60,479 nt of DNA, taken from the IMG/VR virus record IMGVR_UViG_3300036781_000392, positions 1 through 60,479 of that record. One strand, written 5' to 3'. The DNA comes from a virus (Duplodnaviria; Caudoviricetes). The notes beneath the pieces were generated by a model that was not told where the DNA came from, ran no database searches, and saw only the letters and a list, made by a program, of their open reading frames with translations. Every line of letters begins with the position of its first letter. Positions within the stretch are counted from its first letter, which is position 1. Of this stretch, positions 1 to 19,267 are shown one piece after another. A program made the translations under genes and the position numbers.

Positions 1-127
1 TGCCTGGTCCGAGCCTGATCGCCGCAGGTCATTGCCAGGCGGTGCCTGACCATGCCTGACCGTTGGATCTTGCTTATGGTCAGGCAGGGTCAGGCTCGTG
101 ACAGGCATTGCGAGGCTCTGACCTGCG
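1..127. repeat. Terminal direct repeat (circular assembly overlap), left copy
   Basis: 1-127 is identical to 60353-60479; 127 bp matches a common assembler k-mer overlap. Confidence 0.95.
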
Positions 128-149
128 ACGTGTCAGGCAAGGTGAGGCA
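1..149. repeat. clt-like array of 8-mer repeats (TGCCTGAC/GTCAGGCA), candidate TraB recognition sequences
   Basis: TGCCTGAC at 43 and 53, variants at 1, 12, 33 and 60341; inverted GTCAGGCA at 79 and 132, variants at 89, 100, 142; about 10-11 bp spacing; directly downstream of traB. Confidence 0.65.
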
Positions 150-160
150 GATGGCAGGGT

Positions 161-2413
161 TCAGATCCGAACAGAACGGGCGTTACTCTCTGCAACCTTG
201 AGGTCGGACAGCTGGTAGCCCATGGCGCGCTTGTCGTCGACGGTCGACACCCGCACCGACTCCAGACCCAGATCGACAGCGGCCAGCTGCTGCTTCAAGG
301 TCTTGCCAGCGCGGGCCGCGTAAGCGGTGTCCGCCTCGCCCTCGTTACGGGCGTAGCGGACAGAGTCGAAACCGGCGAGCGCCTCGCAAGCCTCCACCGT
401 CGTCACACAGCCGCGACCCGTCCGCTCCGCGGCACCGACCAGGTGGTCGATCAGCGTCGCCCGGACGATGCCGCCGTTGCCGCGAGCGCCGCCGGCCGCA
501 GCCGAGGCGCCCGTGAGACGCAGCATCTCCGCCTCCACCGGGTCGTTGTAGTGACCCGGCAGGCACCCGGCCTTGCGGCGGATCTCCGCGCCCGTCTCGA
601 TCAGCGGCAGGATCTCCCCCGTCGACTCGTCGATGAACAGGCTGCGAACCTCGACCATGCCGGTGTCCGGCGTGGTCAACCAGCCGCGACCACGGGTCTG
701 CTTGCTGTTCTCGATCTCCGACGCGTCGTAGCCGTCCCCAGCCTTCCCGTCACCGAGGATGACGTTGCTGGCGCCGGGCGACTCGACCCGGTTGGCCATG
801 CGGCCGTTGCAGTTACCGCGCAGGCGCGAAGGCACAATGCCGACCTCGGGGAACTGCGTGGCGAGGGCGACGATGATGCCGACGGCTGCGCCGACCGCCG
901 CGATCTGCGCCAGGTACTCGACGATCTCCTCTGCGTGCTCCTTCGACGGGCCCTTGGGCGCGGTGTAGGTGGCGAGCTCGTCGACGACGATCAGTTCGAT
1001 GCCGCCGAGCTTGTCGATCAGCTGCTCGCTCGCCTTGGACACCTGCAGCTCGACGAGGATCTCCGTCCGCCGGTTCATCTCCTCGACCATGACCCGGAGG
1101 AACTCGACCAGGCGCCCGGGATTGCGGCGCACGAACGTAGCGAGGACCGGCGCGAACGGTACGTACTCGCCCGTGCCCTTGCCGTCGAACAGGCGAACAC
1201 GGACACGCGGGTCGAGCATCGACCCCGCAAGGAGGTTCGCCAGCGCCATGCCCTTGCCGGACCTGGTCGCCCCTGCGAACAGCATGCTGTAGTCGCTGAT
1301 CGTCACCGAGTGCACGGTGCCGCGCTTGTCGAAGACCAGGGGAATGCCGTCTCGCCATGTGTTGATGGGCTCTGTGCATCCGATGAGCGGGGACTTGCGG
1401 ACCTTCAGGAACGGGTCCGTGAGCGCTGCCCAGATGTGAAGCCGGCCGTCCCTGTCGCCCTTCTGCAGGTCGATCTGCGACCGGGCGACCCCGAAGGCGC
1501 CCGCGATCTCGTCCTGCTTCGCCATCGCCTTCTGCGCGATCACGCCCGGCGGCAGGTCGACGATCGACACGAACGCGCCGGCCTTGTCGATCGCGGGCGG
1601 GAACACGGTCTTCGTCGTCTCTTCCTTGCCGATGACCCTCGCGGCCCGCAGCGCTTCGTCGATCATGCTCGGGGTCAGGGCGTCCCCGTCACCGAGGCTG
1701 CGGTGCACCGTGGACCAGTCGTCCTCGAGGTGGTCGGCATGCCGGCCGATGAACGCACCGGTGCCGAACGTGGCAGCCGCCGCGGCGACGACGCCGAACC
1801 ATCCCAGCTCTATGAACCCGGCGATCCCGGCAGCGGTGCACGGGGCGCAGACCGCGGCAGCGCGGATGTTCCGCCAGCGCGCCCGATCCTTCTTCGCCGC
1901 CTTGTGCATGGCGATCGCGGACTGCGCGTCAGCAGTCGCCGAGAGCGCCGCCTTCGTCGCCAGCTCCTTCTTCGTCCTCAGCATGCCGGGCGTGCGACGG
2001 GCAATGCGGTTCACCTTCCGGGACTGCTTCGTGGCGACGTGCGCCTGGTGAGCGAGCGCGTCGACCTGCACCCCCTCGAACCCGCGAATCCAGTCGACGG
2101 TCATGTGCGCGCCCCGGCCGAACTGTGCGATGTGGCCGTGGGCGGTGCCCTGCCGGCGAACCCAACGACGGGCGCCACGACGGCGGGCCCGGCAGAAAAT
2201 ACCGGCCCACTGCGCCCACCCCTCAGGGGTGCGCATCCACGTGGGGATCAGCGGGAAGTCGTCGACTGCGTCAACGCCGGCGGTCTTCTTGACCGTGATC
2301 GGGGCGGCCGGGGCCTCCACGCCGGGGAGGCCGTTGAGGACTTGGCGGGCGGATTCGAGGATGAGTGTCTTGTCGTCGGTGCCCCCTTGGGGCCGGGGGA
2401 TGAGGTCCGTCAT
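161..2413 (-). CDS. traB: TraB-type FtsK/SpoIIIE conjugative DNA translocase
   Basis: Walker A AGATRSGKG, 'LFDGKG', Walker B IVVDE, 'ALATQFP', N-terminal TM segments, C-terminal wHTH-like region; AICE-like neighbourhood. Confidence 0.88.
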   Translation of the reverse strand: MTDLIPRPQGGTDDKTLILESARQVLNGLPGVEAPAAPITVKKTAGVDAVDDFPLIPTWMRTPEGWAQWAGIFCRARRRGARRWVRRQGTAHGHIAQFGRGAHMTVDWIRGFEGVQVDALAHQAHVATKQSRKVNRIARRTPGMLRTKKELATKAALSATADAQSAIAMHKAAKKDRARWRNIRAAAVCAPCTAAGIAGFIELGWFGVVAAAAATFGTGAFIGRHADHLEDDWSTVHRSLGDGDALTPSMIDEALRAARVIGKEETTKTVFPPAIDKAGAFVSIVDLPPGVIAQKAMAKQDEIAGAFGVARSQIDLQKGDRDGRLHIWAALTDPFLKVRKSPLIGCTEPINTWRDGIPLVFDKRGTVHSVTISDYSMLFAGATRSGKGMALANLLAGSMLDPRVRVRLFDGKGTGEYVPFAPVLATFVRRNPGRLVEFLRVMVEEMNRRTEILVELQVSKASEQLIDKLGGIELIVVDELATYTAPKGPSKEHAEEIVEYLAQIAAVGAAVGIIVALATQFPEVGIVPSRLRGNCNGRMANRVESPGASNVILGDGKAGDGYDASEIENSKQTRGRGWLTTPDTGMVEVRSLFIDESTGEILPLIETGAEIRRKAGCLPGHYNDPVEAEMLRLTGASAAAGGARGNGGIVRATLIDHLVGAAERTGRGCVTTVEACEALAGFDSVRYARNEGEADTAYAARAGKTLKQQLAAVDLGLESVRVSTVDDKRAMGYQLSDLKVAESNARSVRI

Positions 2414-2453
2414 GATTACTGATCTCCTGTGCTCGTGAGTGGGTCAGGGGGCC

Positions 2454-2497
2454 CGGGGCGGCCGGCACTTGCTTGGCGGCTGGACGGCCGCCCCGGG
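2454..2497. terminator. GC-rich stem-loop between the spd-like gene and traB
   Basis: CCCGGGGCGGCCG...CGGCCGCCCCGGG inverted repeat. Confidence 0.45.
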
Positions 2498-2503
2498 GCG
2501 GAG

Positions 2504-3877
2504 CTACTTGGCGATGCGGGCGGAGACTGACTTGCGGGCGGTGCCGCTGGCGGCGGCCGTGCGGTACTCGGACCGCTCCCTCATGACCCGGTCGCGCAGC
2601 CGAGCGCCACTTCCCTTGCGGATGTGCATGCGGCTCTCGAGCTGCCGCGCGGACACGGGCTTGCCCTCCGCGTAAAGGTCTTCGGCCACACTCAGAGCCT
2701 CCGGCAAGCGCGCCTCCAACTCCTCTTCGGACAGTTCATTTCCAGTGCCCCCAGAACGGGCCTCGCGGGCTTCCTGCGGGCCGTTCTCGGACGCACCCTC
2801 AATCGCGTACAACCCGCCCCCCGTCTGGCTTGTAGGGCCCTCAGGGAGGCTCGCGAAACCAGGCAGCGGAGACACCGGTCCGAGAGTCGGGAACACGTTC
2901 GGCAGAGGGCTCAACGCGGTCGCCATGAGGCCGTTGCGGAGAAGCTCCGGACGAACGTGCTCGCCCAGTTCGAACGCCGCCCCGAGCGCCACCCGAGACG
3001 TCGTCGCCGTCGTGTACAGCTCCGCCGACATACCCGGCTCGGCACCCCGGTGGATACGCCACGCCGTCGCGAACGCTTCCTCGTCCGTGATCTGTCCGAA
3101 GGGCAGCGCCGACAGAAGACGGTCCGCCTCCTTCGCGATGTCCTTGTGATCCTTCCGGCGCTTCGCCAGGTGCTCCGCGCGCGCCTTCTCCGCTGCGCGG
3201 TGCTCCTTCGCCTCCCGACGCTCGGCCTTCGTCCGGCCGTTCGTGCCGTGCATCTTCAAGTCCCAGATGCCGAACGCCACGAGCGACGAAGCACCGAGGA
3301 CGTAGGCGACCCACGGGTGCTGCACGTACTGCTCCTGGCCGTGCCAGAAGTTCACCGCCGACGCGGCCAGCGCGAAGAGCCAACCGGCGGCCCGGAACTT
3401 CCCGGCCCCCCGCTCCTTGTCCTCGGCCTGCTTCGCCATGAACGTCACCGCCCACGCCGAACCCTCGAGCATCGCCGCCAACAGCGCGGCCAACGCGACG
3501 TTGACATCCGCACCCGACAGCGCCGACACCTGGCTGACGACAGCCGGGATGATCGAGGCGGCCATGACGAACGCCACGAACGGCGTCGACGGATTCGCCT
3601 TCAGCCAGCGCACGTGGCGCGCCCGCTTGGCAGCAGCAGCAGCCTTGCCCTGCGCCTTCTTCGCGTCGCGCTGCCGCTGCTCCTCGCGCCTGACCCGACG
3701 CCCCTCCGCGTCAGCGCGGCGCTGCCGCTCCTCCGCGGCCTCCCGGTCAAGACGCTTCTGATCGGCGTCGATCTCCTTGGCCTTCAGCTGAGCCTCCAGC
3801 AGGAGGCGACGGTCTTCGCGGGCCTGTTCGGCGCTCTGCGCCCGGTCGGCGCGGCGCTCCTCGGTCCAGTTGCTCAT
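2504..3877 (-). CDS. DUF2637/Spd-like membrane protein (coiled coil, about 4 TM, C-terminal HTH)
   Basis: Charged coiled coil, hydrophobic helices with 'SAVNFWHG', C-terminal 'VSARQLESRMHIRKGSGARLRD'; adjacent to traB. Confidence 0.7.
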   Translation of the reverse strand: MSNWTEERRADRAQSAEQAREDRRLLLEAQLKAKEIDADQKRLDREAAEERQRRADAEGRRVRREEQRQRDAKKAQGKAAAAAKRARHVRWLKANPSTPFVAFVMAASIIPAVVSQVSALSGADVNVALAALLAAMLEGSAWAVTFMAKQAEDKERGAGKFRAAGWLFALAASAVNFWHGQEQYVQHPWVAYVLGASSLVAFGIWDLKMHGTNGRTKAERREAKEHRAAEKARAEHLAKRRKDHKDIAKEADRLLSALPFGQITDEEAFATAWRIHRGAEPGMSAELYTTATTSRVALGAAFELGEHVRPELLRNGLMATALSPLPNVFPTLGPVSPLPGFASLPEGPTSQTGGGLYAIEGASENGPQEAREARSGGTGNELSEEELEARLPEALSVAEDLYAEGKPVSARQLESRMHIRKGSGARLRDRVMRERSEYRTAAASGTARKSVSARIAK

Positions 3878-4107
3878 CGTGTGCTCCTACGGGTGACGAA
3901 GAGATAGAAGGCGGTGAAGGCCGCTGCTGGGATCAGGACTGCCGGGTTGATCAGCACGCCGAGCACGGCGCACAGGATCGTCGCGACGGGCACCTGGATC
4001 TGCGTCAGCAGCAGCGCCATGAGGACGAGAAGGACTCGACCTCCGGGACGGAGCGTCCGCCGCGGGGATGCGGGGGGCGCCTGATGGCGGGTGAATGTCG
4101 GGCCCAC
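3874..4107 (-). CDS. Small Spd-like membrane protein
   Basis: 77 aa with two hydrophobic stretches; stop overlaps the next start. Confidence 0.6.
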   Translation of the reverse strand: MGPTFTRHQAPPASPRRTLRPGGRVLLVLMALLLTQIQVPVATILCAVLGVLINPAVLIPAAAFTAFYLFVTRRSTR

Positions 4108-4212
4108 GGTGGGCTCCTCTCTAGGTAGTCGGTGGACAGTGGTCGGTGCCCTCGTCTGCCTTTGCAGCTACGCCCGTGATCGACGGACGAGGGTTGAGGT
4201 GGTGCCTGTGCC

Positions 4213-4803
4213 TCAGCTCTGTTCTCGTGCTTTCCGGTTCGCACGGACTGTCCTGGAGTGCTCCGTGTTGGCCGCCCTGCACTGCTCGCATCGACAGCCC
4301 TGCCGGTACCGCCACCAGCCGTGCCGAACCTCGACGACGTTGTTCTGGGGCTTGGCTGGTCGGGCTTGGCGCCGTCGTTCGTGGTAGCGCCTGTCGATCT
4401 CTCGCTTGCACGTCCGGCAGACGCGATGGCCGTCGGCGGCGATGGAGGTGTTGGCCTCATCGAACGGGTGGCCGCTATCGCACTGTTTCTTGCGGGCGTT
4501 TGCGGCGCTGAAGGATGTCCCGCGCAGGATGTTCTCTGCGTTCGTAACGGGCTCCAAGTGCTCAGGGCGCACGCAGGCTCGGTTCCGACACAGGTGGTCG
4601 ATCACGAGCCCTTCAGGTATGGCGCCGTGAGCTGCCTCGTAGGCGAGTCGGTGAGCCTGAAAAGCCTTGCCCCGCAAGCTGAATCGTCCATACCCGTCGA
4701 CATCCACGCTGCCCTGCCAGGTCCAACAGGCGTCTTGCATCTCGACGCGCGCCCGGAAGCGGACCAGGTCCGCGTCGGTCATGTCGAAACTGTTGCTAGG
4801 CAC
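4213..4803 (-). CDS. HNH (His-Me finger) homing-type endonuclease
   Basis: CWTWQG...GYGRF...AHRLAY...DHLCRNRACVRPEHLEPVTNAEN, plus Cys-rich C-terminus. Confidence 0.9.
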   Translation of the reverse strand: MPSNSFDMTDADLVRFRARVEMQDACWTWQGSVDVDGYGRFSLRGKAFQAHRLAYEAAHGAIPEGLVIDHLCRNRACVRPEHLEPVTNAENILRGTSFSAANARKKQCDSGHPFDEANTSIAADGHRVCRTCKREIDRRYHERRRQARPAKPQNNVVEVRHGWWRYRQGCRCEQCRAANTEHSRTVRANRKAREQS

Positions 4804-4860
4804 TGGCAGGATCCCTTCGTGATTGTTAGCGCCACGGCTGGATGCCGGCTGGCGTGCTGG

Positions 4861-5062
4861 TCAGTTGCCGTGCGTGCAGTTCGGGTCGCAGTCCCGCGAG
4901 TCGCAGATGGTGACGGTGCCGCAGCCGATCGCCTTGCTGATCCCGTTTGGCGATCCGTCCGCCGGTCTCGCCGGCGACCTGACGACCGGCCCCCTGCAAG
5001 CGCCGGGAGATGTACTCCGGTGCGGACATGTCGTTCTCCTCGCGTGCCTGACGTCCGAACAT
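4861..5062 (-). pseudogene. Small Cys-rich protein with a probable +1 frameshift
   Basis: Good RBS at 5062; GC3-rich frame switches at GCCAAAC (about 4947); removing one A gives ...GRIANGISKAIGCGTVTICDSRDCDPNCTHGN*. Confidence 0.5.
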
Positions 5063-5137
5063 GTGGTGCTCCTTCCTGGACCGGGACTGTCCCGGCTCCC
5101 CTCACCGCCGGTACGGGACCGGCGGATCGGGCAACCG

Positions 5138-5407
5138 TCAGGCCGCGTTGGAGGGCAGGTCGTAGCGGATGCCGCGGATCCTGTCGGCGGCGTAAAGCGC
5201 CAAGGCCACGACCAGACCGAGCGATGCGAGGGGCGGGGCGGGCAGCTTTTGCGCGAGCTCCATCACCCTGGCGTCCGCGGCTGCCCACTCCGGGGAGTCG
5301 ACGCCGTGGCTGGCCTCGATCGCGTCCAGCTCATCGAGCGCTGCAGAGTGCTCCGCCTCGACCGCGGCCAGGGCGGCCTTCCGAGCGGGGGTCTTGAATC
5401 CGAACAT
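5138..5407 (-). CDS. Hypothetical protein of the transfer operon
   Basis: GGAGG RBS, GC3 bias, 'ELDAIEA' motif, C-terminal hydrophobic segment. Confidence 0.6.
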   Translation of the reverse strand: MFGFKTPARKAALAAVEAEHSAALDELDAIEASHGVDSPEWAAADARVMELAQKLPAPPLASLGLVVALALYAADRIRGIRYDLPSNAA

Positions 5408-5493
5408 GTGGGTCCTCCGTTGAGTGGTTGGTGCGGATGGTCTGGTCGTGCTCGGCACCGTCCGGCCCGGAGGCCGGGCGGCACCGGGCTCGG

Positions 5494-5718
5494 TCAGGCC
5501 GCAGCCGGGTAGCTGGGGGCTTCGACGCCGGCCAGGACCGGCGCCTCACCCGGGTGCCGCTGGTCGTAGTCCGAGGCGAGCGCCCCGATGTGCGCCATCC
5601 CGAGCCGGTCCCAGCGCTCCAAGGCGTGCAGGTAGCTGGTCTGGAGCTCGGCCCGGCGGGCCTGGTCGGCCTCGTAGGCGTCAAGGTCGGACGTGATGAG
5701 ACGCAGGTGCGGAGACAT
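5494..5718 (-). CDS. Hypothetical protein
   Basis: RBS and GC3 bias (MSPHLRLITSDLDAYEAD...). Confidence 0.65.
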   Translation of the reverse strand: MSPHLRLITSDLDAYEADQARRAELQTSYLHALERWDRLGMAHIGALASDYDQRHPGEAPVLAGVEAPSYPAAA

Positions 5719-5890
5719 GGGGGTGCCTTTCAACTGAAGTGGATGGGTTGGTAGCCGCCGCCGCGGGGACGGGGTGGACACCGCGACGGCGGCCGAACAG
5801 GGAGTGGAGCGGTGGATCAGCGGGTCGGGTTCTCGCTGCGCTGGTTCTTCTCGCGAAGCTCGCGGAGCATCCGCTCGCGGTCGGCGTCGG

Positions 5891-6079
5891 TCATCGCGCC
5901 CACCCGCTCGGCTGCTCGGCGTTCGCGGCGGCCGACTCGAAGGCGGCGCGGGCAGACATGCCGTACACCGGCAGAGCGTCAGCCATCGGGTGAGTCGGAT
6001 CCCCGGCGATCTCGATGGCGAAGCGCACGTTGCCCTCGCCCCGGGTCTCCTCGGCCTGAGCGAAGAACGGATTCGACAT
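5891..6079 (-). CDS. Hypothetical protein
   Basis: Operon-packed small ORF with GC3 bias. Confidence 0.5.
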   Translation of the reverse strand: MSNPFFAQAEETRGEGNVRFAIEIAGDPTHPMADALPVYGMSARAAFESAAANAEQPSGWAR

Positions 6080-6084
6080 CACCG

Positions 6085-6222
6085 TCACCACCCCCGCACA
6101 GCGATGGCGCGGCGACGGGCACGAGTCTCAGTGGGAAGCGGGCGGGCGTCGGCCTGACGGGCACGGCGCAGAGCCTCATCGGCCTGGGAGGGCGAGGTGG
6201 GCTTCGGGGTCTTCTCGGTCAT
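6085..6222 (-). CDS. Hypothetical protein
   Basis: TGATG coupling to the upstream HTH gene. Confidence 0.45.
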   Translation of the reverse strand: MTEKTPKPTSPSQADEALRRARQADARPLPTETRARRRAIAVRGW

Positions 6223-6455
6223 CAGGCCACCTCCGACATCGAAGGCGGGGTGACGGCGGCGGTGTCGAGGAACGCCGCGAGCGACGCCTCCAGGACGCGG
6301 AAGCGGGGGCGGCCCTGCCCCTTCGCGATGTCGATCGCCGAGAGGCGGCCGGTACGGATGAGTTGGCGCACGTGCTGAGTGGTGCTGCAGAGGCGGCGAG
6401 CCACCTCGCCGGTGGTCAGGTAGTCGCCCGGAGGGGCGACGGAGTTGGACGTCAC
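6222..6455 (-). CDS. Excisionase-family HTH DNA-binding protein
   Basis: YLTTGEVARRL...VRQLIRTGRLSA...RFRV, typical of HTH_17/Xis. Confidence 0.85.
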   Translation of the reverse strand: MTSNSVAPPGDYLTTGEVARRLCSTTQHVRQLIRTGRLSAIDIAKGQGRPRFRVLEASLAAFLDTAAVTPPSMSEVA

Positions 6456-6518
6456 TGGGTTCTCCCCTGAGGTCGACTGGGGCTGACACCCATAGCTTGG
6501 CAGATTGATATGCAGCAA

Positions 6519-6534
6519 TCAATGGCTCTAGAGC
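6519..6534. promoter_or_regulatory. Candidate GntR/KorSA operator upstream of the transfer operon
   Basis: TCAATGGCTCTAGAGC contains the palindrome GCTCTAGAGC, which recurs upstream of the GntR gene. Confidence 0.6.
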
Positions 6535-6561
6535 ACATACAACGAATCTAAGACAGCAAAA

Positions 6562-6589
6562 GGCCCCCACCCCGTGCGGGGTGGGGGCC
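6562..6589 (-). terminator. Intrinsic terminator after the GntR gene
   Basis: GGCCCCCACCCC-gtgc-GGGGTGGGGGCC followed by TTTT on the minus strand. Confidence 0.75.
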
Positions 6590-6601
6590 AGAAGGTGCAG
6601 G

Positions 6602-7360
6602 TCAGGCCTCGAAGTCGTACACGAGGAGGAACTTCGAAGCGTCCAAAACCATTCGGTTGATCTCGACGACACGCCCGTCGGCTCGCATCGCGGAGCGGTG
6701 CTGCTCGATGACCGGCGCACCGGAGGCGAGCTTCAGGTCGTCGACCTCGGGGGGCGTCGCCAAGCGGCAACGAACCTGCTCGCGGAACTTCACCGGTCCG
6801 TGTCCGGCTTCACGCAGGCGGGCGTAGATGCCGCCCGGGCCAGCGTCGCTCTCGGTGATCCGAGTGTCGTGCGCCAAATCGTCCGGAATGTAGGAGGTGG
6901 CGCGCATGACGATCTCACCGTCCACCACGTACCGCCGATCCCGCTTCCAGACGCGGGCGTCAGGGTCCATGTCGAGCGCGCGGGCCACATCGTCTTGAGC
7001 GTTGATCAGTTCGACATCGGTCCGGCCGAGCACCGTCATGCGGCGGTCCTCGATGTCGACCTCCCACATCGAGCGTCCTTCGCCCCACTGGCTCGCCGAC
7101 AGCCGCTCCAGAGCGTTGCGCACGATCGGGCGCCACTGTGTCAGCCACCAACCGGATCCGACGCGGGACTCGACGAGACCCTCATCCTTGAGTACGCCGA
7201 GCGCCTGCCGGACCGTGGCCAGTGACGCTCCGTACTCCGTACTCAGGTCGCGCTCCGGAGGCAGCTTCCGTTTCTCGTCGAACGCCCCGCTCTTGATGCG
7301 ATCGCGCAGCTCGCCGGCGATGACCCGGTACTTGTGCGGCTCGCCGGCCTTTGGTGTCAC
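6602..7360 (-). CDS. KorSA-like GntR (HutC/UTRA) transcriptional repressor
   Basis: GntR wHTH (KLPPERDL...TVRQAL...GSG) plus UTRA domain ending 'LVYDF'; typical of pSAM2-type elements. Confidence 0.9.
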   Translation of the reverse strand: MTPKAGEPHKYRVIAGELRDRIKSGAFDEKRKLPPERDLSTEYGASLATVRQALGVLKDEGLVESRVGSGWWLTQWRPIVRNALERLSASQWGEGRSMWEVDIEDRRMTVLGRTDVELINAQDDVARALDMDPDARVWKRDRRYVVDGEIVMRATSYIPDDLAHDTRITESDAGPGGIYARLREAGHGPVKFREQVRCRLATPPEVDDLKLASGAPVIEQHRSAMRADGRVVEINRMVLDASKFLLVYDFEA

Positions 7361-7383
7361 GGGCTCTCCTTGGGATCGATTCA

Positions 7384-7474
7384 TCTAGAGCAACGCTACC
7401 TGCTCCATATCACTGCTGGTCAATCTGTGGGTAATGCGCCCCCCGAGAGGAGCTGGCGTCAATTGCTCTAGAGC
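7384..7474. promoter_or_regulatory. Candidate autoregulatory operators
   Basis: TCTAGAGC at 7384-7391 and TCAATTGCTCTAGAGC at 7459-7474. Confidence 0.55.
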
Positions 7475-7545
7475 GCTACGGTGGCTCGGTAGCCAGTTCG
7501 TCACCGAGGGCGAATGACCTCTTGCTGTTGGAACCCGGGAGGATC

Positions 7546-8064
7546 GTGTCTGCACCAGAACGCACCGCGCTGTATCGCCTGTACGACGCCGACGACCAAC
7601 TGCTGTACATCGGGATAGCCAAGGATCCAGAAGCCAGGTGGGCAAGCCACGCGACCACCACCCGCTCGTCGAAGTGGTGGCACCTCGTGGCCAGGAAGAC
7701 GGTCGAGTGGCTGCCCTCTCGGGAGGCTGCGGATGCCGCTGAGACCAGAGCCATCGCGGCCGAGAATCCCTACTACAACCAGGCCAAGCGGGACGACGTA
7801 TCGAAACGACGCTTCCGGTTCTACTCCAAAGAAATCCGTTGGGTGAGCGTTCATCTTGACCCTGCATCCGTGCAGGTAGCACGAATCATCAAGGCTGAGA
7901 TCGCAAGTGGCGCTATCCCCACTGGGGCCCTCATGCCAACGGCCCGGCAGCTCGCAGAGCGCTTCGGAATCACCGACCAGACCATGGGGAAAATGCTGCG
8001 AACCCTTGCCGACGAGGGCGTCATCCATCAGAAGAAACCGCGAGGACGCTTCTACTGCTCATGA
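7546..8064 (+). CDS. GIY-YIG nuclease fused to a C-terminal GntR-type wHTH
   Basis: ALYRLYD...LLYIG...R...H...E.RAI..ENP.YN, then 'GALMPTARQLAERFGI'. Confidence 0.8.
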   Translation: MSAPERTALYRLYDADDQLLYIGIAKDPEARWASHATTTRSSKWWHLVARKTVEWLPSREAADAAETRAIAAENPYYNQAKRDDVSKRRFRFYSKEIRWVSVHLDPASVQVARIIKAEIASGAIPTGALMPTARQLAERFGITDQTMGKMLRTLADEGVIHQKKPRGRFYCS

Positions 8065-8143
8065 GAAAGGCCGGATGGTCGCCACCATCCGGCCGAAGCA
8101 ACCAGCGGGTCGCTGCCCGCTGATCAACGAGATTGGAGTCTCG

Positions 8144-8584
8144 ATGACAACTGTACTGCCTGAAGCCCTCGTCGCGCCTGCTCCCGGCCTGCCCCGGACG
8201 TGGCTGCGTCACATCACGGGCGGCGGCCAGATCGTCGAAACCTGCCCGTCCTGGTGTACCGATTCCCACCGCACCGACACTCACGGCGCCTTGGATGACC
8301 TGCAGCACGGCCGGTCCATCCAGGGCGTGTCGCTGCCCGCATTCGACTGGGCGAAGGGCACGGTCGGCGTGCAAGTCCTGCCGGTGCGCCTGGCCGTCGA
8401 CCCGTACAGCGCCGAGCCCGAGCGGGCGGTGCCGCACATCCTCGTCGAGGTCGCCGCCGACGAGTACAGCCTGCCGCTGTCGCCCGCCGAGTTCGCGGCA
8501 ATGCTGGGGTCGGTCCGGGCTCACCTCGACTGGCTGCAGGATGCGGTGCTCGGGCAGCTGGTGGCGGCGCGGGCCGTGGCCTGA
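8144..8584 (+). CDS. Hypothetical protein (DUF6907-like)
   Basis: 'CPSWCTDSH' motif, RBS, GC3 bias. Confidence 0.65.
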   Translation: MTTVLPEALVAPAPGLPRTWLRHITGGGQIVETCPSWCTDSHRTDTHGALDDLQHGRSIQGVSLPAFDWAKGTVGVQVLPVRLAVDPYSAEPERAVPHILVEVAADEYSLPLSPAEFAAMLGSVRAHLDWLQDAVLGQLVAARAVA

Positions 8585-8595
8585 CATCTGGCATG

Positions 8596-8628
8596 AACCG
8601 GCCGGGATGCGTTGATTCCCGGCCGGTT
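8596..8628 (+). terminator. Stem-loop
   Basis: AACCGGCCGGGA...TCCCGGCCGGTT. Confidence 0.55.
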
Positions 8629-8694
8629 TCCCATGTCCGCCTGCAGTCGATCGATCGACTCGGTGACCATGCGGCTCTACCCGAGGGAGTCGTC

Positions 8695-9048
8695 ATGGCT
8701 GTCGCGTGTCCGTCGTGCACGAGCGCCGCACAGGTGCATCACCTGCCGGCGTTCTGGAAGTCCATGTCGCAGGATGCGGAGCTGAAGCGCGAGTTGGCGC
8801 CGCCGCCCGCCGCGGTGTTGCAGTGGGTTCCGGCCGTGTCATGCCTCGCCGTCGCGGTGATCCTGCTGGCGTCGAGCGTGATCCTGTTCGGGCTGTTGGC
8901 GCTGGCGGTCGCCGGGGTGGTGGGCTACACGGCCTACCGGTCGTTCGCCGCGGCGGAGGCGGCGGTCGCCGCATGGAACGCGGCGCTGTACTGCCGCCAC
9001 TGCCACAACCGATTCCTACCCGGCAGCGGGTTCCTCGAGGCGGCGTGA
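8695..9048 (+). CDS. Two-TM membrane protein with terminal CxxC pairs
   Basis: CPSC at N-terminus, CRHC at C-terminus, hydrophobic core, GAGGGAG RBS. Confidence 0.7.
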   Translation: MAVACPSCTSAAQVHHLPAFWKSMSQDAELKRELAPPPAAVLQWVPAVSCLAVAVILLASSVILFGLLALAVAGVVGYTAYRSFAAAEAAVAAWNAALYCRHCHNRFLPGSGFLEAA

Positions 9049-9055
9049 CACACGA

Positions 9056-9092
9056 CAGCCCCTCGCCGAGTAAACGCTCTGCGAGGGGCTGT
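9056..9092. terminator. Bidirectional terminator between convergent genes
   Basis: ACAGCCCCTCGC...GCGAGGGGCTGT. Confidence 0.7.
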
Positions 9093-9103
9093 GTGCTATG
9101 CAG

Positions 9104-9280
9104 CTACGACCGGACCCACGACTCCCCATCGCGTTCCCAAGTCAGCCGGTCGGACGGGTCGTCGTAGTTGTACTCCAGGCAGAGGTCGCACCAGCCGCCG
9201 TGTTCGCCGCCGTGGCCTGCCGGTTGGTCGCATTCAGTGGTGCCGTGGGCGTGGCGCAAGGTCGCCCCGCACGGCGTCAC
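9104..9280 (-). CDS. Small Cys/His hypothetical protein
   Basis: GTGA coupling, GC3 bias. Confidence 0.55.
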   Translation of the reverse strand: MTPCGATLRHAHGTTECDQPAGHGGEHGGWCDLCLEYNYDDPSDRLTWERDGESWVRS

Positions 9281-9882
9281 GCTGCGGCCCGCCGTTCCGC
9301 CATCGGCAGCCCGAGGACCTCGTCGTGCCCGTACTGCGTCTCGCACCCGGGGCACTTCGCGCCGGGGGTGTCGAGGGTGACGCGGAGGACAGCACCGCAC
9401 GGGCAGGCGACGGGGATACGGCGCGGCGCCGGCTCACCGGAGACGAGGCGTCGGGCCTGGCCGGTGACCTGCCGTATTTCGTCCGCGATCTCGCGTATCG
9501 CCGGGTGCTCGTCGCACAGCATCGGCAGGTTGACGAGCAGCAGGCTGCAGGCCCAGTCGACGATCGCCTCGACGGATCCGAGCAGCGGAATAGTCCAGCC
9601 CTCCCGCTCGCACACGTCCCGGGCCCATCCGCCGACAACACCCTCGATCCCGCCGCGGGCCCGCAAATCGAGCACGTCGAGGCTGACGGGAATGGGGGCG
9701 CTGCGGCTCCCGGACCGGCCGCCGTCACCTCGCCGGCCGGGGGCGAGCTCCTGCTCCAACTGCCGGTAGAGGCCGGGCAACTCGGCCAGATCGTCGGCGA
9801 TGTGCTGACGGCACCCATCGTGCACGCGGGGCAGGGATGGGCGGTCACAGACTGCGCAAGGGAACGAGACGGGGTCGGTCAT
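9277..9882 (-). CDS. Zn-finger phage protein
   Basis: CAVC...HDGC, CPCG...CPGC motifs. Confidence 0.75.
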   Translation of the reverse strand: MTDPVSFPCAVCDRPSLPRVHDGCRQHIADDLAELPGLYRQLEQELAPGRRGDGGRSGSRSAPIPVSLDVLDLRARGGIEGVVGGWARDVCEREGWTIPLLGSVEAIVDWACSLLLVNLPMLCDEHPAIREIADEIRQVTGQARRLVSGEPAPRRIPVACPCGAVLRVTLDTPGAKCPGCETQYGHDEVLGLPMAERRAAA

Positions 9883-9931
9883 GTCGGGCTCCATCGGTCG
9901 TGCGGGCGGGGCGGTCAGGCGGGCGGGGCGG

Positions 9932-10570
9932 TCAGGAGGTGAGGGCAGCGAGGGCCTGCTCGGCAAGTTGTCGGCGGCGGGGCGCGATGCCGGTGTCGCA
10001 GCACGCTTCACGCCAGCTGCCATGCGGGGTCGTGTCGTCGTGATACCTGCACGTCGCGGGCAGCTTCTCCAGCGCGTGCTGGATCGCTGGCAGGCACTCG
10101 CGCACCCGGTCGAGGGCGGACCGCGCGGCGACGAGCTCGGCCTCCAGACGGGCCACCTCGTCTCGCAGTTCCGGGAGTTCGGGAACCTGGCGGCCGAGTT
10201 CGCGGGCCACCTCGAACGCGATGTGGCGTCCGTCCAGACGCGCTACCGCGGCGGCCAAGGCTTCGGGCGTCCCGTACACGGTGGCGATCGCATCGAAGTG
10301 GTAGGCGGCTACCTGAATCGGACTTGCGACTCGGCACTCCTCCTCCGACTGGCCGCATTCGCCATCGCAGTCGTGCGCGGCGGCCCGGATCGCGGCGGCG
10401 TAGCGCTCGGCGAGGGTCGCCTCCGACGCCTTGAAGCCCTCAGCGCCCGTCTGAGGGCCCGGAGGGGGGTCCGAACCTCCCGGAGTGCCAACTCCAGGGC
10501 TTGAGGCGCCCTCAGGGGCCTTCAGGCCGTTCCTCGGGGCCTGTTCGGGGGTGAGTGAATCTCCGGTCAC
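9932..10570 (-). CDS. Hypothetical protein
   Basis: GGAGG RBS, coupled start, coiled-coil segment. Confidence 0.6.
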   Translation of the reverse strand: MTGDSLTPEQAPRNGLKAPEGASSPGVGTPGGSDPPPGPQTGAEGFKASEATLAERYAAAIRAAAHDCDGECGQSEEECRVASPIQVAAYHFDAIATVYGTPEALAAAVARLDGRHIAFEVARELGRQVPELPELRDEVARLEAELVAARSALDRVRECLPAIQHALEKLPATCRYHDDTTPHGSWREACCDTGIAPRRRQLAEQALAALTS

Positions 10571-10725
10571 GCTTCCTCCTTGGGTTCTGTCCTGGTTTGC
10601 GGGTCTTCGAGGCCCTCCCGCGCCAGCACGCGGATCCCGTCCCGCAGAACATCCGCCTCGCCGGGCAGCATCACGCCCCGCTCCGCCCGGTCCACGATCA
10701 GCAGCAGCAACTCGACCGGCGTCAT
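10567..10725 (-). CDS. Hypothetical protein
   Basis: MTPVELLLLIVDRAERG..., coupled at both ends. Confidence 0.55.
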   Translation of the reverse strand: MTPVELLLLIVDRAERGVMLPGEADVLRDGIRVLAREGLEDPQTRTEPKEEA

Positions 10726-10892
10726 CGCCGCCTCCCCGCCGCGCGCTTGAGGGCACGTCGAGTCGCACGGTTCGGTGCCGGCTCCGGCTGCCCGTCGTCG
10801 ACGACGACCTCGAGGCGGCGGAGCTCCGTCTCCCAGCGGGCACCCGGCGCGCCCGCACGCTCGCCGCGGGGGCTGCTCGACGGGGCGGTCAT
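10722..10892 (-). CDS. Hypothetical protein
   Basis: ATGA coupling, ends 'PNRATRRAL'. Confidence 0.55.
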   Translation of the reverse strand: MTAPSSSPRGERAGAPGARWETELRRLEVVVDDGQPEPAPNRATRRALKRAAGRRR

Positions 10893-11077
10893 GACGCCCT
10901 CCGTCGCTTCGGCTGCCCCGCCGCGTTGACCAGGCCGTCGGCGGTGGCCTTCAGCAGCAGCGCTTGATGGATCACGTCCCGCCACCGCTGACCCGGGTAC
11001 AACCCGAGGAGCAGCTTCGTGTCGGACCAGATCTCGGTGACGATCACACGGCGGGGCGGGGCAGTCGGAGTTCCCAC
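10889..11077 (-). CDS. Hypothetical protein
   Basis: GGAGG RBS before GTG at 11077 (alternative start 11158). Confidence 0.55.
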   Translation of the reverse strand: MGTPTAPPRRVIVTEIWSDTKLLLGLYPGQRWRDVIHQALLLKATADGLVNAAGQPKRRRAS

Positions 11078-11154
11078 GGTTCCTCCAGGGGTCGGTGCGT
11101 GGTTGGGTTGCGGGGCGGCTGGACCTGTTACGAGCAGGTCCAGCCCGTTGCGTG

Positions 11155-12261
11155 TCATGCGGCGGCGCGACTAGCGAGCAGGCGTATGGCCGCCTCGGCT
11201 TGCTGGGGGACGACGCCGTTGCCGAGGGCCTTGAGCTGCTGAGTGCGGGTCAGCGCGGGGACCGCGGTGACGTGGCCGGCGGGCAGACCCATGAGCCATT
11301 AGACGAACACGGGGCTCAGTCGATTGCGATCGTCAGTTGCCCTGGGAGCGGTTCGTCCGGTGGCGGACTCCCAGCGCCGAACGGCGGGGAGGAAACGGCC
11401 CCACGCAGCGTCGGGTTGCCCCGTGCATACGTCGTGCTCGTCCTGTCGCTGTCCGAGGCCGTCGGGGTTGGAAGGAGCTGTACTACTGCCGAGGGGAGCG
11501 CCAGGTCGCCTTTCGAGCCGCGCTGATTCGGGCCGCCCTTCTCCCCATCCGACGCTCGCGGTGTGGGCAGCAGCGCCACGGCTTCGGACAGGTCGACGTC
11601 CGAGAGCGGCCTCGGCCGGCCGTCCCGGCTGCGCCCCTGCGTCGCCCCGCTGCCCTTGTAGTCCGACGCGTTCGGCGTCGGCAGCAGCGACACTGCCGTC
11701 CGTAGATCCGGCCCGCCGTCCCCGTGCAGCCCCGCGCCGTTCGTGTCCGACGTCCGCGGCGTCGGCAGCAGTGGCGACGACGATGAGCCGGTTCCGCTGG
11801 TGGGGAGCGCCGACCTCCGACGCGCGTACAAGGCACCACTCCGCATCGAACCCGATCTCGGCAAGGTCGGCGAGGACGGTGTCGAATCCGAGTCGAAGGT
11901 GATTCGCGACGTTCTCAAAGATCGCGATTCGGGGTCGTAGAACGCGAAGGGCACTGGCAATGAAGGGCCAGAGGTGCCGCTCATCCGAAGTTCCTTTCAG
12001 GTCGCCAGCGAGGGAGAACGGCTGGCACGGGTAGCCGCCGCAGAGGATGTCGATGGGCCCGTACTGGTCTGCGATCTGCTGCCAGTCGGCGGTGGTGAGG
12101 TCGCCGATGTTCGGGGTGTCCGGCCAGCGGTGAGCAAGGATCTTCGAGGCGCCGGGGTCGATGTCCGACACCCAGGCGGTCTCGCCGCCGAACACGGCCT
12201 CCACGGCGGCGTCCAGGCCCCGGTATCCGGAGCAGAGTGAGGCGATCCGCGGGCCGATCAT
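11155..12261 (-). pseudogene. C5-cytosine DNA methyltransferase (alpha frame) interrupted by an in-frame TAA at 11299-11301
   Basis: Motifs I (SLCSGYRG), IV (GGYPCQPFS), VI (ENV), VIII (HQRNR); 'RLSPVFV*WLMGLP...QQLKALGNGVVP' continues in frame past the stop. Confidence 0.85.
11316..11984 (-). CDS. Nested alternative-frame methyltransferase beta-like subunit with four LLPTPxxSD repeats
   Basis: 222-aa ORF entirely within the MTase gene; 'SSPTLPRSGSMRSG' resembles the M.EcoHK31I beta N-terminus (recalled, not aligned). Confidence 0.7.
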   Translation of the reverse strand: MSGTSGPSLPVPFAFYDPESRSLRTSRITFDSDSTPSSPTLPRSGSMRSGALYARRRSALPTSGTGSSSSPLLPTPRTSDTNGAGLHGDGGPDLRTAVSLLPTPNASDYKGSGATQGRSRDGRPRPLSDVDLSEAVALLPTPRASDGEKGGPNQRGSKGDLALPSAVVQLLPTPTASDSDRTSTTYARGNPTLRGAVSSPPFGAGSPPPDEPLPGQLTIAID

Positions 12262-12449
12262 CGGGTCTCCTTCGTGGTGGTTTCGTATCGGGCCGGGTCG
12301 GCAAGGTGCGTGAGATGAACAAAGCCGCAGGGGCACTCGTATGCGTTGAGCACGCGGCCCCGGACACGCTCGAGGCGGCGGGCCACCAGCAGGGCCGCCT
12401 CCCGCGTCGCGTACCGGTGCTTCGACGGAGTCGGACAGGGCGGGGTCAT
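12258..12449 (-). CDS. Small Zn-binding protein
   Basis: CPTPSK.RY...AYECPCG..HLT. Confidence 0.7.
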   Translation of the reverse strand: MTPPCPTPSKHRYATREAALLVARRLERVRGRVLNAYECPCGFVHLTHLADPARYETTTKETR

Positions 12450-12769
12450 GCGGCCTCGGCTATCCGGCCCTGGGCCCGCCAGCGGTAGACGGTCCGGGGC
12501 TCGACGTCGAAGATCCGAGCGATCTCCTCGGCAGGCAGCCCGAGCCGCGTCAACCGCAGCCCCGCCTCGCGGCGTTCGGCCGGCCGCATCCCCGGCAGTG
12601 CGCGGCGGGCAGAAACGGCTGCCTCGATGGCGATGCCGTCCGGCTCGGCCTTGCTCTGGTGCGGGTCGCCGTATCGCCAGACCCTGGTGCGGTGGGTGGA
12701 GCAATAGCTCTGCCCCGGCCGCGGGCTTCGCGGGCATCCGGTGACACGGCATTCACGGTCGCGGATCAT
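12446..12769 (-). CDS. HTH DNA-binding protein
   Basis: 'AEEIARIFDVEPRTVYRWR' with N-terminal Cys cluster. Confidence 0.75.
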   Translation of the reverse strand: MIRDRECRVTGCPRSPRPGQSYCSTHRTRVWRYGDPHQSKAEPDGIAIEAAVSARRALPGMRPAERREAGLRLTRLGLPAEEIARIFDVEPRTVYRWRAQGRIAEAA

Positions 12770-13077
12770 GCGGCTGTCTCCTCGGCTTCGCGGTAGCGGC
12801 GTGCGTGGACGACGCCGGGGAGGAGCCGGGCCCCGTCGTTGTGGCAGGGGATGCCGGGCTCGACCTGGCACTCGGGGCAGCAGGCCGACTCGCGGGCCCA
12901 GGCGGTCACCCGGGCGGGGTGCGGTTCGGTGAGGATTCGGCCGCTAGCCCGGACGCGGCACGGTCGGTGCGCGCCGGCCTCGCAGTGCGGGCATGAGACC
13001 GCGCGGGCCGGGTGCTGGCCGGCGCGCATGAAGTGGCGGATCTCTTCGGGCATCGGGGCGTTGCGGTGTCGGGTCAT
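12766..13077 (-). CDS. Zinc-finger protein
   Basis: Two CPxC...PC...HxxR repeats. Confidence 0.75.
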   Translation of the reverse strand: MTRHRNAPMPEEIRHFMRAGQHPARAVSCPHCEAGAHRPCRVRASGRILTEPHPARVTAWARESACCPECQVEPGIPCHNDGARLLPGVVHARRYREAEETAA

Positions 13078-13607
13078 GAGGCTGCCTTTCCGGCTTCGAT
13101 TCGGGACGGGTGGAACGCGACGAGGGGTTTGTTTTGGCCGTTGCGGCACCGGCGCATTGGAGCGGCGCCGCAGTGCGGGCATTCGACGGACGACGGGCCG
13201 CTCTTGGGGGCCTCGGTGGGCACCGAGCGGCCGACGCCGGCGAGGAGTTGGGCGATGGGTCGTGGCTTGAGTTCCAGTCCGTCTGCGGCCTTGACGCGCT
13301 GTGCGCGCAGAGCGGCGAGGTATGCGGGCACGTCGTCGGGGTCGGCGTCGGGCACGGCGGCCGGGAGGCCTGGGCCTTGGAAGTCGCTGGCCTGTGCGTG
13401 CCGGATCTCGCGAACGGCCCCGCGGATATCGGCTGGCATGATCCAGCGGGTTTCTTCGGCGTAGTGCGCGGTGACGGCGGACTTGGCTGCGTTGAAGTCG
13501 ATGTCGGCGAGGACGGTCTGCCAGGCGAGGACGTCGGCCTTTCCGACGGTCCGCCGGTCGAAGGCCGCGCAGAAGGCCAGCAGCTCAGCTGTCTGGGCGG
13601 GTGTCAC
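13074..13607 (-). CDS. Replicative helicase loader/inhibitor-like protein with C-terminal Zn finger
   Basis: 'AFDRRTVG..DV.AW..VL...A...HY....WIMPADI'; follows the initiator gene. Confidence 0.7.
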   Translation of the reverse strand: MTPAQTAELLAFCAAFDRRTVGKADVLAWQTVLADIDFNAAKSAVTAHYAEETRWIMPADIRGAVREIRHAQASDFQGPGLPAAVPDADPDDVPAYLAALRAQRVKAADGLELKPRPIAQLLAGVGRSVPTEAPKSGPSSVECPHCGAAPMRRCRNGQNKPLVAFHPSRIEAGKAAS

Positions 13608-14518: not shown

Positions 14519-14550
14519 GGGATCTCTTTCCGGTCCGTAGGAATGGGGAG

Positions 14551-15843: not shown

Positions 15844-15883
15844 GTCGAGTCCTTCCGTGTGAGTCGATCGATGGGTGCGCTGC

Positions 15884-16849: not shown

Positions 16850-17088
16850 TTGGTCTCCTCTCGGGTGAGTTCGGTCCACAGGTCTGTGAGGTGCTGTTCG
16901 ATGTCGTCCCAGTCGTGGGTGCCGACGCGTGGTGCGGGTGCTGCTGTGAGTTCGCGGCAGGTGCGGAGCTGGTGCCGGAGCCGGGCGATGGCGCGGCGTG
17001 TGCCGCGGATGAGGACGGCGGCGAGGCAGAGCAGGCAGAAGAACTTGAAGAGGTCGAACATCCCGACGGCGACCTCGGTCGGGGTCAT
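16846..17088 (-). CDS. Small membrane protein
   Basis: Coupled ORF with N-terminal hydrophobic stretch. Confidence 0.55.
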   Translation of the reverse strand: MTPTEVAVGMFDLFKFFCLLCLAAVLIRGTRRAIARLRHQLRTCRELTAAPAPRVGTHDWDDIEQHLTDLWTELTREETK

Positions 17089-17447: not shown

Positions 17448-17517
17448 GACGTGGTCTCCTGGTTCTGGGCCGCCCTGCCTGCTTCCGACGGGCAGGGCGG
17501 CCCGAGGCTGGGGTGGG

Positions 17518-19049: not shown

Positions 19050-19267
19050 GCCGCACCGTCCAGCGGCGCGATGTCGATGCCGACCAGTTCGGTGCTGCCC
19101 GCTCCGACCCGGTTGCCGGTGCGGTAGAGCGCGGCGACCTGGAACGGCGTCGCGGCGTCGGTGCCGAGTAGGTAGTGGAGTTTCCCCTCGAAGCTGTCGC
19201 CGGTGGCGACGCGCTCCCTGATGTCGTCGAGGAGGCTGAGGAGCTCCTCGCGGCTCATGTTCTGCAT
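19046..19267 (-). CDS. Hypothetical protein
   Basis: RBS, coupled to the RecE-like gene. Confidence 0.6.
   Translation of the reverse strand: MQNMSREELLSLLDDIRERVATGDSFEGKLHYLLGTDAATPFQVAALYRTGNRVGAGSTELVGIDIAPLDGAA

Follow-up and report, generated by a model that had tools for sequence, protein, structure and literature searches.

We analysed a 60,479-nt stretch of DNA, here termed the window, which is the entire IMG/VR virus record IMGVR_UViG_3300036781_000392 (Duplodnaviria; Caudoviricetes), and focused on a block of genes at positions 1–7,474 that resembles the double-stranded DNA (dsDNA) transfer modules of Streptomyces plasmids. Genes were called by their third-position G+C content (GC3) and their products were scanned against Pfam, PHROGs and NCBIfam. 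The block comprises genes for a GntR/UTRA repressor, an excisionase-family protein, two Spd-like membrane proteins and a TraB-type translocase, as well as several small genes and a clt-like repeat array. A preliminary description, made from the letters alone, had recognised the small genes too, and all the genes it listed are found on the minus strand where it had placed them.

The gene at 161–2413 (minus strand) encodes a 750-aa protein with an FtsK/SpoIIIE domain (PF01580, E 1.5e-8), and a ribosome-binding site, GGAGA, lies 9 nt ahead of its ATG. The protein aligns with TraB of pSG5 over 624 aa (41.7% identity, 385 bits) and with TraB of pSVH1 over ~620 residues (348 bits), whereas the motor-plus-gamma parts of chromosomal FtsK from Kitasatospora and Streptomyces griseus reach 43–50 bits over ~200–240 residues at 28% identity. 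Matches to it occur in 61 plasmid records, of which 54 are from Streptomyces; pSG5 (NC_008792.1) and pSVH1-type plasmids are among them. We also built a quick maximum-likelihood tree of 112 proteins, omitting six fragments and a duplicate record (seven rows in all) and using shorter FtsK-domain proteins from other Actinomycetota as the outgroup. This tree groups the window protein with pSG5 (L003) and pSVH1 (L100) in a clade of 97 rows (support 100), separate from the outgroup. Both the scores and the phylogeny thus support the earlier assignment of the protein to the TraB type, rather than to chromosomal FtsK. As a test model, plasmid_TraB of NCBIfam proved too narrow and was rejected, TraB of pSG5 itself scoring 32.8 against a cut-off of 800.

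Residues G381, G386, K387, D478 and E479, which belong to GxxxxGK and DE motifs, are invariant across 25 homologues. The motor domain spans residues ~245–600, and a simple hydropathy scan places a hydrophobic segment at 183–212. An AlphaFold model of the protein (confidence score pLDDT 81.4) has long N-terminal helices that include this segment, a confident motor domain and a small C-terminal domain; it matches FtsK and TcpA structures, with a Foldseek E-value of 8e-15 to the FtsK motor 2ius. When modelled alone (pLDDT 83.6), the C-terminal domain (residues 654–747) has the order helix-strand-helix-helix-strand-strand. Its top Foldseek rows are all winged-helix domains, yet with E-values of 0.044 or worse, and its best Z-score in VIA, 5.9, is under the stated noise level.

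The clt-like array occupies positions 1–160, 3′ of traB (minus strand). Its 8-mers, TGCCTGAC(C), lie at 43–50, 53–60, 79–86, 89–96, 100–107, 132–139 and 142–149, with weaker copies nearer position 1. Counted from the traB stop, eight copies start at +12, +22, +65 and +75 in the plus orientation and at +99, +109, +140 and +163 in the minus orientation, so that the first copy lies 12 nt past the stop. A second count gives five copies in one orientation and then three in the other. Seven copies of GTCAGGCA (at most one mismatch) fall within the 107 nt from 43 to 149, and the whole window holds 77 where 64 are expected. At least eight copies of any one 8-mer occur in only 3 of 1208 overlapping 200-bp segments, namely the one over this array and two over iterons at ~14.1 kb. 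The array exceeds chance, and with eight 8-mers within 160 nt after the traB stop its earlier description as clt-like holds.

To place the array and its neighbours, we used two collections of related loci. An alignment-based profile search of IMG/VR gave 46 loci with 34 full TraB relatives (a single-protein scan gave no relative), and 79 loci came from scanning a single genome for each species, almost all of them in Streptomyces, Kitasatospora or close kin. In ~100 of these loci we determined the commonest 8-mer, in either orientation and with at most one mismatch, within 220 nt past the traB stop. Loci of the pSVH1 clade yield GACCCGGA or a shifted form of it, and GACCCGGA is the recognition sequence given for pSVH1 in the relevant part of a review (PMC5133688); the method therefore has a positive control. 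Most loci, the window included, share one layout, with four to six copies in the same orientation at ~+4 to +90, followed by three to five inverted copies at ~+100 to +180. In L004 the offsets are nearly identical to those of the window. The 8-mer itself varies by clade: it is TGCCTGAC in the window, CCCCTGAC in L051, ACCCTGCC in L006, L007 and L067, CCTGGAC in L014, L019, L031 and L061, and CCGCACAG in L017 and L018.

The 8-mer tracks the C-terminal domain of TraB and not its motor, and domain and array move together. Among 76 distinct TraB proteins, motif similarity correlates with C-terminal-domain identity when the motor is controlled for (partial r 0.24; 0.17 for the reverse; the 2850 pairs are not independent events). 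CCTGGAC is common to six of the nine pairs whose motors are <50% identical and whose C-terminal domains are >60% identical, and in the 101 pairs with motor identity >70% but C-terminal identity <45%, motif similarity is at background. Such joint movement of reading domain and array is what a TraB–clt pair predicts, and several of the loci concerned are phage-linked. Moreover, L014, L031 and L034 have motors only 31–32% identical to those of L061 and L064, C-terminal domains that are 65–73% identical and the same CCTGGAC array. From these comparisons, the reading domain and clt appear to have been swapped as a cassette between TraB lineages.

Upstream of traB, the gene at 2504–3877 (minus strand) encodes a 457-aa SpdB2 homologue. 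Over 98% of its length it shares 52% identity with the product of the pSG5 open reading frame (ORF) 4087–5301, at the spdB2 position, and over 94% it shares 48% with SpdB2 of pSVH1. Its charged N-terminal region (residues ~1–95) and hydrophobic segments from residue 100 onwards correspond to the charged region and membrane segments reported for SpdB2 in the relevant passages of PMC4447253. The stop of the preceding gene, which encodes a 77-aa membrane protein at the Spd79 position (3874–4107, minus strand), overlaps the start of the spdB2-like gene (ATGA); by analogy with spd operons, where such coupling has been described, the two are probably coupled in translation. The pair of Spd-like membrane proteins recognised earlier is thereby accounted for. 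An Orf108 match was not found in the window. Between the spdB2-like stop and the traB start lies a perfect 13-bp inverted repeat (CCCGGGGCGGCCG / CGGCCGCCCCGGG; 2452–2497, minus strand) with a 20-nt spacer and no T tract, which may serve as an attenuator or as a site for processing or for a protein.

The remainder of the operon, again on the minus strand, is more heterogeneous. It includes an HNH_3 endonuclease gene (4213–4803; Pfam) that the preliminary description had left unnamed, a doubtful ORF (4826–5062; GC3 0.74, Arg/His-rich), and small ORFs without family match at 5138–5458 (one hydrophobic segment), 5494–5781 (one homologue, in L069) and 5891–6091. Blastn of 1–7474 against GenBank phages gave a sole match, 108 nt of the HNH_3 gene, in five mycobacteriophage records; this stretch is 79% identical to HNH genes of Mycobacterium phage Ariel/Courthouse cluster-mates. 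Homologues of the HNH_3 gene stand at differing places in L009, L010, L021, L035, L064, L065 and L066, as expected for a mobile homing-type gene. The operon would begin with a gene for a 98-aa excisionase-family protein with an HTH_17 helix-turn-helix (HTH) domain (6222–6518, minus strand), which adjoins the GntR gene in relatives too.

The GntR/UTRA repressor of the preliminary description has the expected domains of a HutC-type regulator (6602–7384, minus strand; PF00392, E 1.9e-18; PF07702, E 9.6e-22), with an alternative GTG start at 7360 after AAGGAGA. It is 23–31% identical to plasmid repressors, and TraR of pSG5/pSVH1-type plasmids would, judged by its sequence, be its best point of comparison. 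In the 60 kb, exact GCTCTAGA is confined to three sites, all of them around this gene. One is in the palindrome GCTCTAGAGC (6525–6534), just upstream of the HTH_17 gene, which is a candidate operator of the transfer operon; the other two, at 7384–7391 and in a palindrome at 7465–7474, flank the GntR promoter region. A hairpin of 12 pairs followed by a T tract (6562–6589, minus strand), resembling an intrinsic terminator, separates the GntR gene from the operon. The GntR proteins of L026 and L035 are 72–73% identical to that of the window, and in these two loci the three sites recur at the same relative places and are the sole TCTAGA in 22 kb. Two sites are retained in L069 and one each in L017 and L068, and near the gene in six loci with more distant GntR proteins no operator site was found. 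We read GntR as an autoregulated repressor that may also gate the transfer operon, by analogy with TraR in pSVH1.

A 104-aa protein with only a GntR-type winged helix is encoded at 28229–28543. Its gene is preceded by ~3 copies of a 10-nt unit, TATGGAGCTG / TGTAGAGCTG (28208–28543 region), of which TAGAGC resembles the half-site of the GCTCTAGAGC operator, and the protein may cross-talk with the transfer repressor. Homologues (32–49%) adjoin the att site in G027, G013, G018, G031, G022 and Streptomyces pacificus.

The carrier of this module is a phage genome. Bases 1–127 are identical to 60353–60479, which marks the window as a circular (or concatemeric) assembly; its 60,352 bp are rated by IMG/VR/CheckV as 100% complete. 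G+C remains at 64–72% along its whole length, and composition is unbroken at the transfer module, which is positioned between early genes and packaging genes. On one side of it, across the contig junction and beyond the repeat array, the late region (31502–60302, minus strand; Pfam and PHROGs profile scans) begins with a gene for a DUF6197 protein (59802–60302) and small genes that include an HNH gene (57285–57617). It continues, on the same strand, with TerL (55297–56838), portal (54032–55300), S78 protease (52996–54039), HK97 capsid (51467–52861), a protein with a head-tail adaptor domain (47588–49510), tail tube (45493–45981), chaperone (44566–44991), a 1263-aa tape measure (40619–44410), a 740-aa tail protein (38396–40618) and a peptidase-type lysin (35149–36411). 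All scanned late genes are full-length open frames, and from these matches the tailed-phage late set is taken to be complete and siphovirus-like, no search having been aimed specifically at a sheath. Iterated BLAST from TerL, portal and capsid of the window did not connect the diverged late genes. Near the lysis and tail-fibre region, 32954–33610 encodes a collagen triple-helix repeat protein (PF01391, E 1.4e-15), with partial matches in G013 and G031.

The other side of the GntR gene is flanked by early-type genes for DUF7341, zinc-finger, CoiA-like nuclease-domain and HTH proteins, a PD-(D/E)XK nuclease and an N6/N4 methylase; beyond these follow a Cro/CI-type HTH gene and tyrosine integrase A. 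The module therefore has the setting proposed for it earlier, with early genes on one side and HNH, TerL, portal, capsid, tail and lysis genes on the other. The densest repeats of the genome (14051–14273) lie immediately downstream (minus strand) of the gene for the 430-aa CoiA-like protein (14551–15843). They consist of ~4 copies of a 21–22-nt unit and then 3 of a 33-nt unit, which share the core ACGGGGTTT / AAACCCCG, and are probably the replication origin. A theta origin had been claimed before; these iterons agree with an origin and only suggest the theta mode.

Tyrosine integrase A (25672–26952, plus strand) is followed, 163 bp further on, by a 43-nt attP core (27115–27157, plus strand) that corresponds to the 3′ end of tRNA-Val(TAC). 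In the five Streptomycetaceae genomes searched, the last 43 nt of this tRNA match it at 98% in four and at 91% in one, and GTCCAC-type repeats surround the core. According to the preliminary description the module uses the phage's own integrase. Integrase A and the tRNA-Val attP agree with this; the genome has two tyrosine recombinases, however, not one. The second (30188–31501, minus strand), XerC/D-like with 118 bits to NF001399, adjoins a complete tRNA-Leu(CAA) (29739–29816) and has a 70% identical homologue at the same place in G018; it could serve to resolve dimers or as another integrase. An open frame at 27668–27907 (plus strand), missed by the gene calling, resembles a small XRE-type HTH protein.

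In Streptomyces pacificus CWH03, the attP core of the window occurs twice, as a 44-bp exact repeat with copies 59,765 bp apart, one inside tRNA-Val and the other without a tRNA. Between the copies lie homologues of the att-proximal GntR-HTH paralogue of the window, of tail genes, TerL, TraB (53%), HTH_17 (56%) and GntR (54%), in the order of the window, and a distant homologue of integrase A adjoins the far repeat. The repeats bound phage and transfer genes alike, and this sibling has therefore integrated as one unit with both modules. At the predicted provirus ends of G013, G031 and G022 we found no att-like repeats, only 13–14-nt chance matches.

The combination of traB with phage genes recurs elsewhere. 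A survey of the kind that the preliminary description had proposed finds TerL (phrog_9) in 21, HK97 capsid in 19 and a PF04860 portal in 8 of the 34 TraB-bearing IMG/VR records, and both TerL and capsid in 14 each of the 19 such records rated at least 90% complete. To extend it to the genomes, we built a TerL profile from 19 IMG/VR TerL sequences and that of the window, taken from the ORFs with the highest GC3. TerL lies on the same strand 2,541–8,947 bp past traB in 20 loci (13 of 34 viral, 7 of 60 genome loci). Of the other viral loci, 19 have a full flank of 9–10 kb without TerL and 2 a short flank; for the other genome loci these numbers are 41 and 12. All seven TerL-linked genome loci belong to a set of 22 with TraB identities to the window of at least 45%, and TerL is nearby in none of the 37 pSG5-like loci (TraB 36–45% identical). 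The latter have a divergent GntR gene, an SpdB2 homologue and often a downstream integrase; that is, by their gene content they look like ordinary integrative and conjugative elements of actinomycetes (AICEs) and plasmids.

The closest counterpart is G027, a circular record of 69.9 kb whose gene order follows that of the window: integrase, nuclease, HTH, DUF7341, GntR, HTH_17, TraB, HNH, TerL, portal, tail tube and tape measure. Its late module is 36–80% identical to that of the window (TerL 80%, portal 57%, tape measure 47%). Its TraB is merely 35% identical, yet traB occupies the same slot.

These loci also bear on the integrity of the window, which the preliminary description had conceded might be a phage/AICE chimera. 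In contigs of another pipeline from the probable source run, a soil DNA sample, positions 1–20000 are covered at an even depth of 9.6–10.7, and a 10,328-nt contig contains 1–7179 without a difference and extends 3,149 nt past position 1 (a separate assembly, not separate data). The phage/traB junctions are the same in G027, L051 and S. pacificus, and a direct-repeat search of the whole window found no exact pair that flanks the module. A chimera is thus largely refuted.

Two groups of loci deserve mention in their own right. The TraB-bearing IMG/VR proviruses G002, G003 and G007 (loci L006, L007 and L011; 77.9–80.8 kb, 91–100% complete) have no match to phrog_9, PF05065 or PF04860; they may be AICE-like elements that were classed as viruses, or phages whose late genes belong to other families. 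L104 carries a TraB relative and a 73% homologue of the window gene 49941–50342 on a contig binned as Kofleriaceae (Myxococcota); since its tree neighbours are all Streptomyces, this is probably a binning error and not a host jump.

The nearest functional precedent appears to be pZL12 (phage ZL12, GQ919031.1; Zhong et al. 2010), which is described as a 90-kb plasmid prophage with ParAB. Like pZL12, the window is a tailed-phage genome with a Streptomyces-type transfer region, and in the pZL12 record a GntR/UTRA gene (pZL12.80) and tra genes (.73c–.71c) likewise stand immediately upstream of TerL (.67c) and of the late gene that follows it, all in one orientation. Unlike pZL12, however, the window has no ParA-type match (PF13614, PF01656) and has a tRNA attP. 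The product of pZL12.71c is unrelated to the window TraB (26.6 bits in BLASTP; no PF01580 hit at E 0.01). Moreover, pZL12 is called a singleton in the passage of PMC7157519 concerned, whereas the layout of the window recurs in 20 loci. We take the shared slot to be convergent or a very old shared architecture; on gene content, the window does not appear to be a plasmid-phage of the pZL12 type.

The module itself is closest to that of pSVH1 and pSG5 (traR, spdB3-spd79-spdB2-orf108-traB, clt). It shares with them TraB (42%), SpdB2 (48–52%), a GntR repressor, a small membrane protein coupled to spdB2 and an array of 8-mers, plus and then minus, within 200 nt past traB. It differs from them in that its repressor gene is co-oriented with the operon, whereas those of the plasmids are divergent; in the 8-mer (TGCCTGAC versus GACCCGGA in pSVH1); in having no SpdB3 or Orf108 match and an insertion of the HNH gene and unrelated small ORFs; and in its carrier, a 60-kb phage versus a 12-kb plasmid.

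With AICEs such as pSAM2 and SLP1 the window has in common a tyrosine integrase, an attP matching the 3′ end of a tRNA, a regulator of the GntR family and just one FtsK-like Tra protein, accompanied by Spd proteins. In the sections of PMC3218068 and PMC2440964 that define them, AICEs combine Int, Rep and Tra. The window has no match to Prim-Pol (PF09250), RepAM/DUF3631 (PF12307), Rep_trans (PF02486) or a Pif-like NUDIX protein; the DUF3631 blank is weak because its control matched nowhere, and RepSA has no public model. Within these limits, the earlier statement that an AICE replicase is lacking stands for Prim-Pol, RepAM and Rep_trans, as does the lack of an integrase in or next to the module. 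Unlike AICEs, the window carries a full virion and lysis module, and it is several times larger than those named in PMC2440964 (10.9–17.3 kb). From its gene content, it would not be an AICE in the sense of Int plus AICE-type Rep plus Tra. Finally, Spd-type membrane proteins are present in other temperate Streptomyces phages: SpdB2 homologues of phiC31 and VWB are proposed in a passage of PMC4447253 to aid the spread of phage DNA. These phages are cited there for SpdB2 alone, whereas the window adds TraB, clt and the repressor. In the literature outside subscription journals and supplements, no integrating phage that carries a TraB module came to light, and the passages of a 2025 plasmid-mobility review that cover phage-plasmids do not include conjugating ones.

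Taken together, we favour, as the probable though far from secured explanation, that the window is a temperate, tRNA-Val-integrating, siphovirus-like phage of Streptomycetaceae with an intact Streptomyces-type dsDNA transfer module that spreads it as follows. The genes with their homologies, the cis site and its kept position, the operators, attP and the recurring layout are observed; we infer each step of expression, binding and transfer from sequence. GntR/UTRA would bind the three GCTCTAGA sites and repress both itself and the operon that starts at HTH_17. Once repression is lifted, the operon would produce the Spd79-like and SpdB2-like membrane proteins and TraB, whose C-terminal domain would bind the TGCCTGAC array just past traB. 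TraB would then pump the phage genome, excised as a double-stranded circle, into an adjacent hypha and, together with the Spd proteins, also across septa. In the recipient, the genome would integrate by means of the phage integrase, or go lytic. Such virion-free transfer through the mycelium, which the preliminary description had put forward, gains strength from the conserved clt and has a published precedent in pZL12. The wider proposition, on which we consider the case evenly balanced, is that a lineage of integrating Streptomycetaceae phages are true conjugative prophages, in which TraB reads a private 8-mer code next to traB and pumps the excised genome as a naked double-stranded circle between hyphae and across septa, two infection routes are available, one of them needing neither receptor nor capsid, and the reading head and clt are swapped together between phages, plasmids and AICEs.

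Several observations weigh against this explanation. TerL linkage is scattered on the TraB tree and needs at least 12–15 changes, so that the module has passed repeatedly between phages and elements of other kinds. Among the nearest TraB relatives are AICE- or plasmid-like elements, of which L004 has Prim-Pol and ParA, and Kitasatospora loci carry an integrase 8–10 kb downstream. Being often exchanged, the module could have arrived recently, as cargo, in any given genome. An SpdB3 equivalent was not identified in the window, the operon is interrupted by the HNH gene and several unmatched small ORFs, and the winged-helix assignment of the TraB C-terminal domain is consistent with the structural model without being significant. 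The HTH_17 protein scores below curated cut-offs (25.5 bits versus 27; 22.3 versus 28.8 for NCBIfam 'excise'), so that of the earlier xis-like HTH the HTH_17 gene is confirmed and the xis identity is borderline. Finally, none of 50,697 GenBank phage records matches the window TraB (E up to 1e-5) or SpdB2 (E up to 1e-3) in tblastn. No plaque-forming member has thus been seen, and virion production is predicted from the genes.

Some of the same evidence could be explained if the module only spread the phage within one mycelium, across septal cross-walls, with no conjugation from donor to recipient. This is possible but unlikely. The passages of PMC4447253 on plasmids report that intramycelial spreading needs both SpdB2 and TraB, and the role proposed there for the SpdB2 homologues of phiC31 and VWB would be of the same kind; in the window, the Spd79-position gene, spdB2 and traB are kept as a coupled set. 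The same passages, however, give TraB and clt as sufficient for primary plasmid transfer, and nothing in the sequence disables this step. Moreover, the two roles are not exclusive.

It is also rather doubtful that we are dealing mainly with a conjugative integrating element in which the phage genes no longer give infectious virions, be it a defective prophage or one that makes occasional packaging particles. This would fit the absence of the window TraB and SpdB2 from the cultured phage records, the closest TerL match in any GenBank cultured phage, which is only 35% identical, and the fact that all relatives are predicted proviruses or metagenome contigs. Against it stand the full-length late genes, the completeness of the record and a late module that has been kept between G027 and the window.

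The frequent exchange of TraB between element types, the HNH insertion and the toxicity of unregulated traB (reported for plasmids in the passages of PMC4447253) would also agree with a module that is passive cargo, or that serves to kill or to exclude other elements, without moving the phage genome. We consider this improbable: a cis array is useless unless the carrier DNA is the substrate, yet it is kept after traB in TerL-linked loci, where its 8-mer tracks the TraB C-terminal domain, and phages with TraB proteins only 31–35% identical carry the module in one and the same slot. An assembly chimera of a phage with an AICE or plasmid, or an AICE nested in a prophage, is scarcely credible: the ends of the contig do lie within a repeat-rich array, but depth is even, a separately assembled contig crosses position 1, the junctions recur in G027, L051 and S. 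pacificus, and neither an integrase or AICE-type Rep in or beside the module nor exact flanking repeats were found.

Phages and conjugative elements are usually seen as separate vehicles of gene flow, limited by receptors in one case and by cell contact in the other. The sole studied exception in Streptomyces, pZL12, is described as a plasmid-type singleton. In the integrating phages described here, a canonical set of TraB, SpdB2, repressor and clt occupies a fixed slot, and the layout recurs in at least 20 loci from isolates and soil metagenomes. Named cultured lysogens among the relatives, S. pacificus CWH03 and Streptomyces sp. NPDC005969 (L051), allow direct testing of the explanation we favour. 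If it is true, prophage and AICE predictors would each misfile such elements (13 of the 34 TraB-bearing IMG/VR records have no TerL match), phage resistance through receptor loss would not stop such prophages, and lysogeny could sweep a mycelium without lysis.

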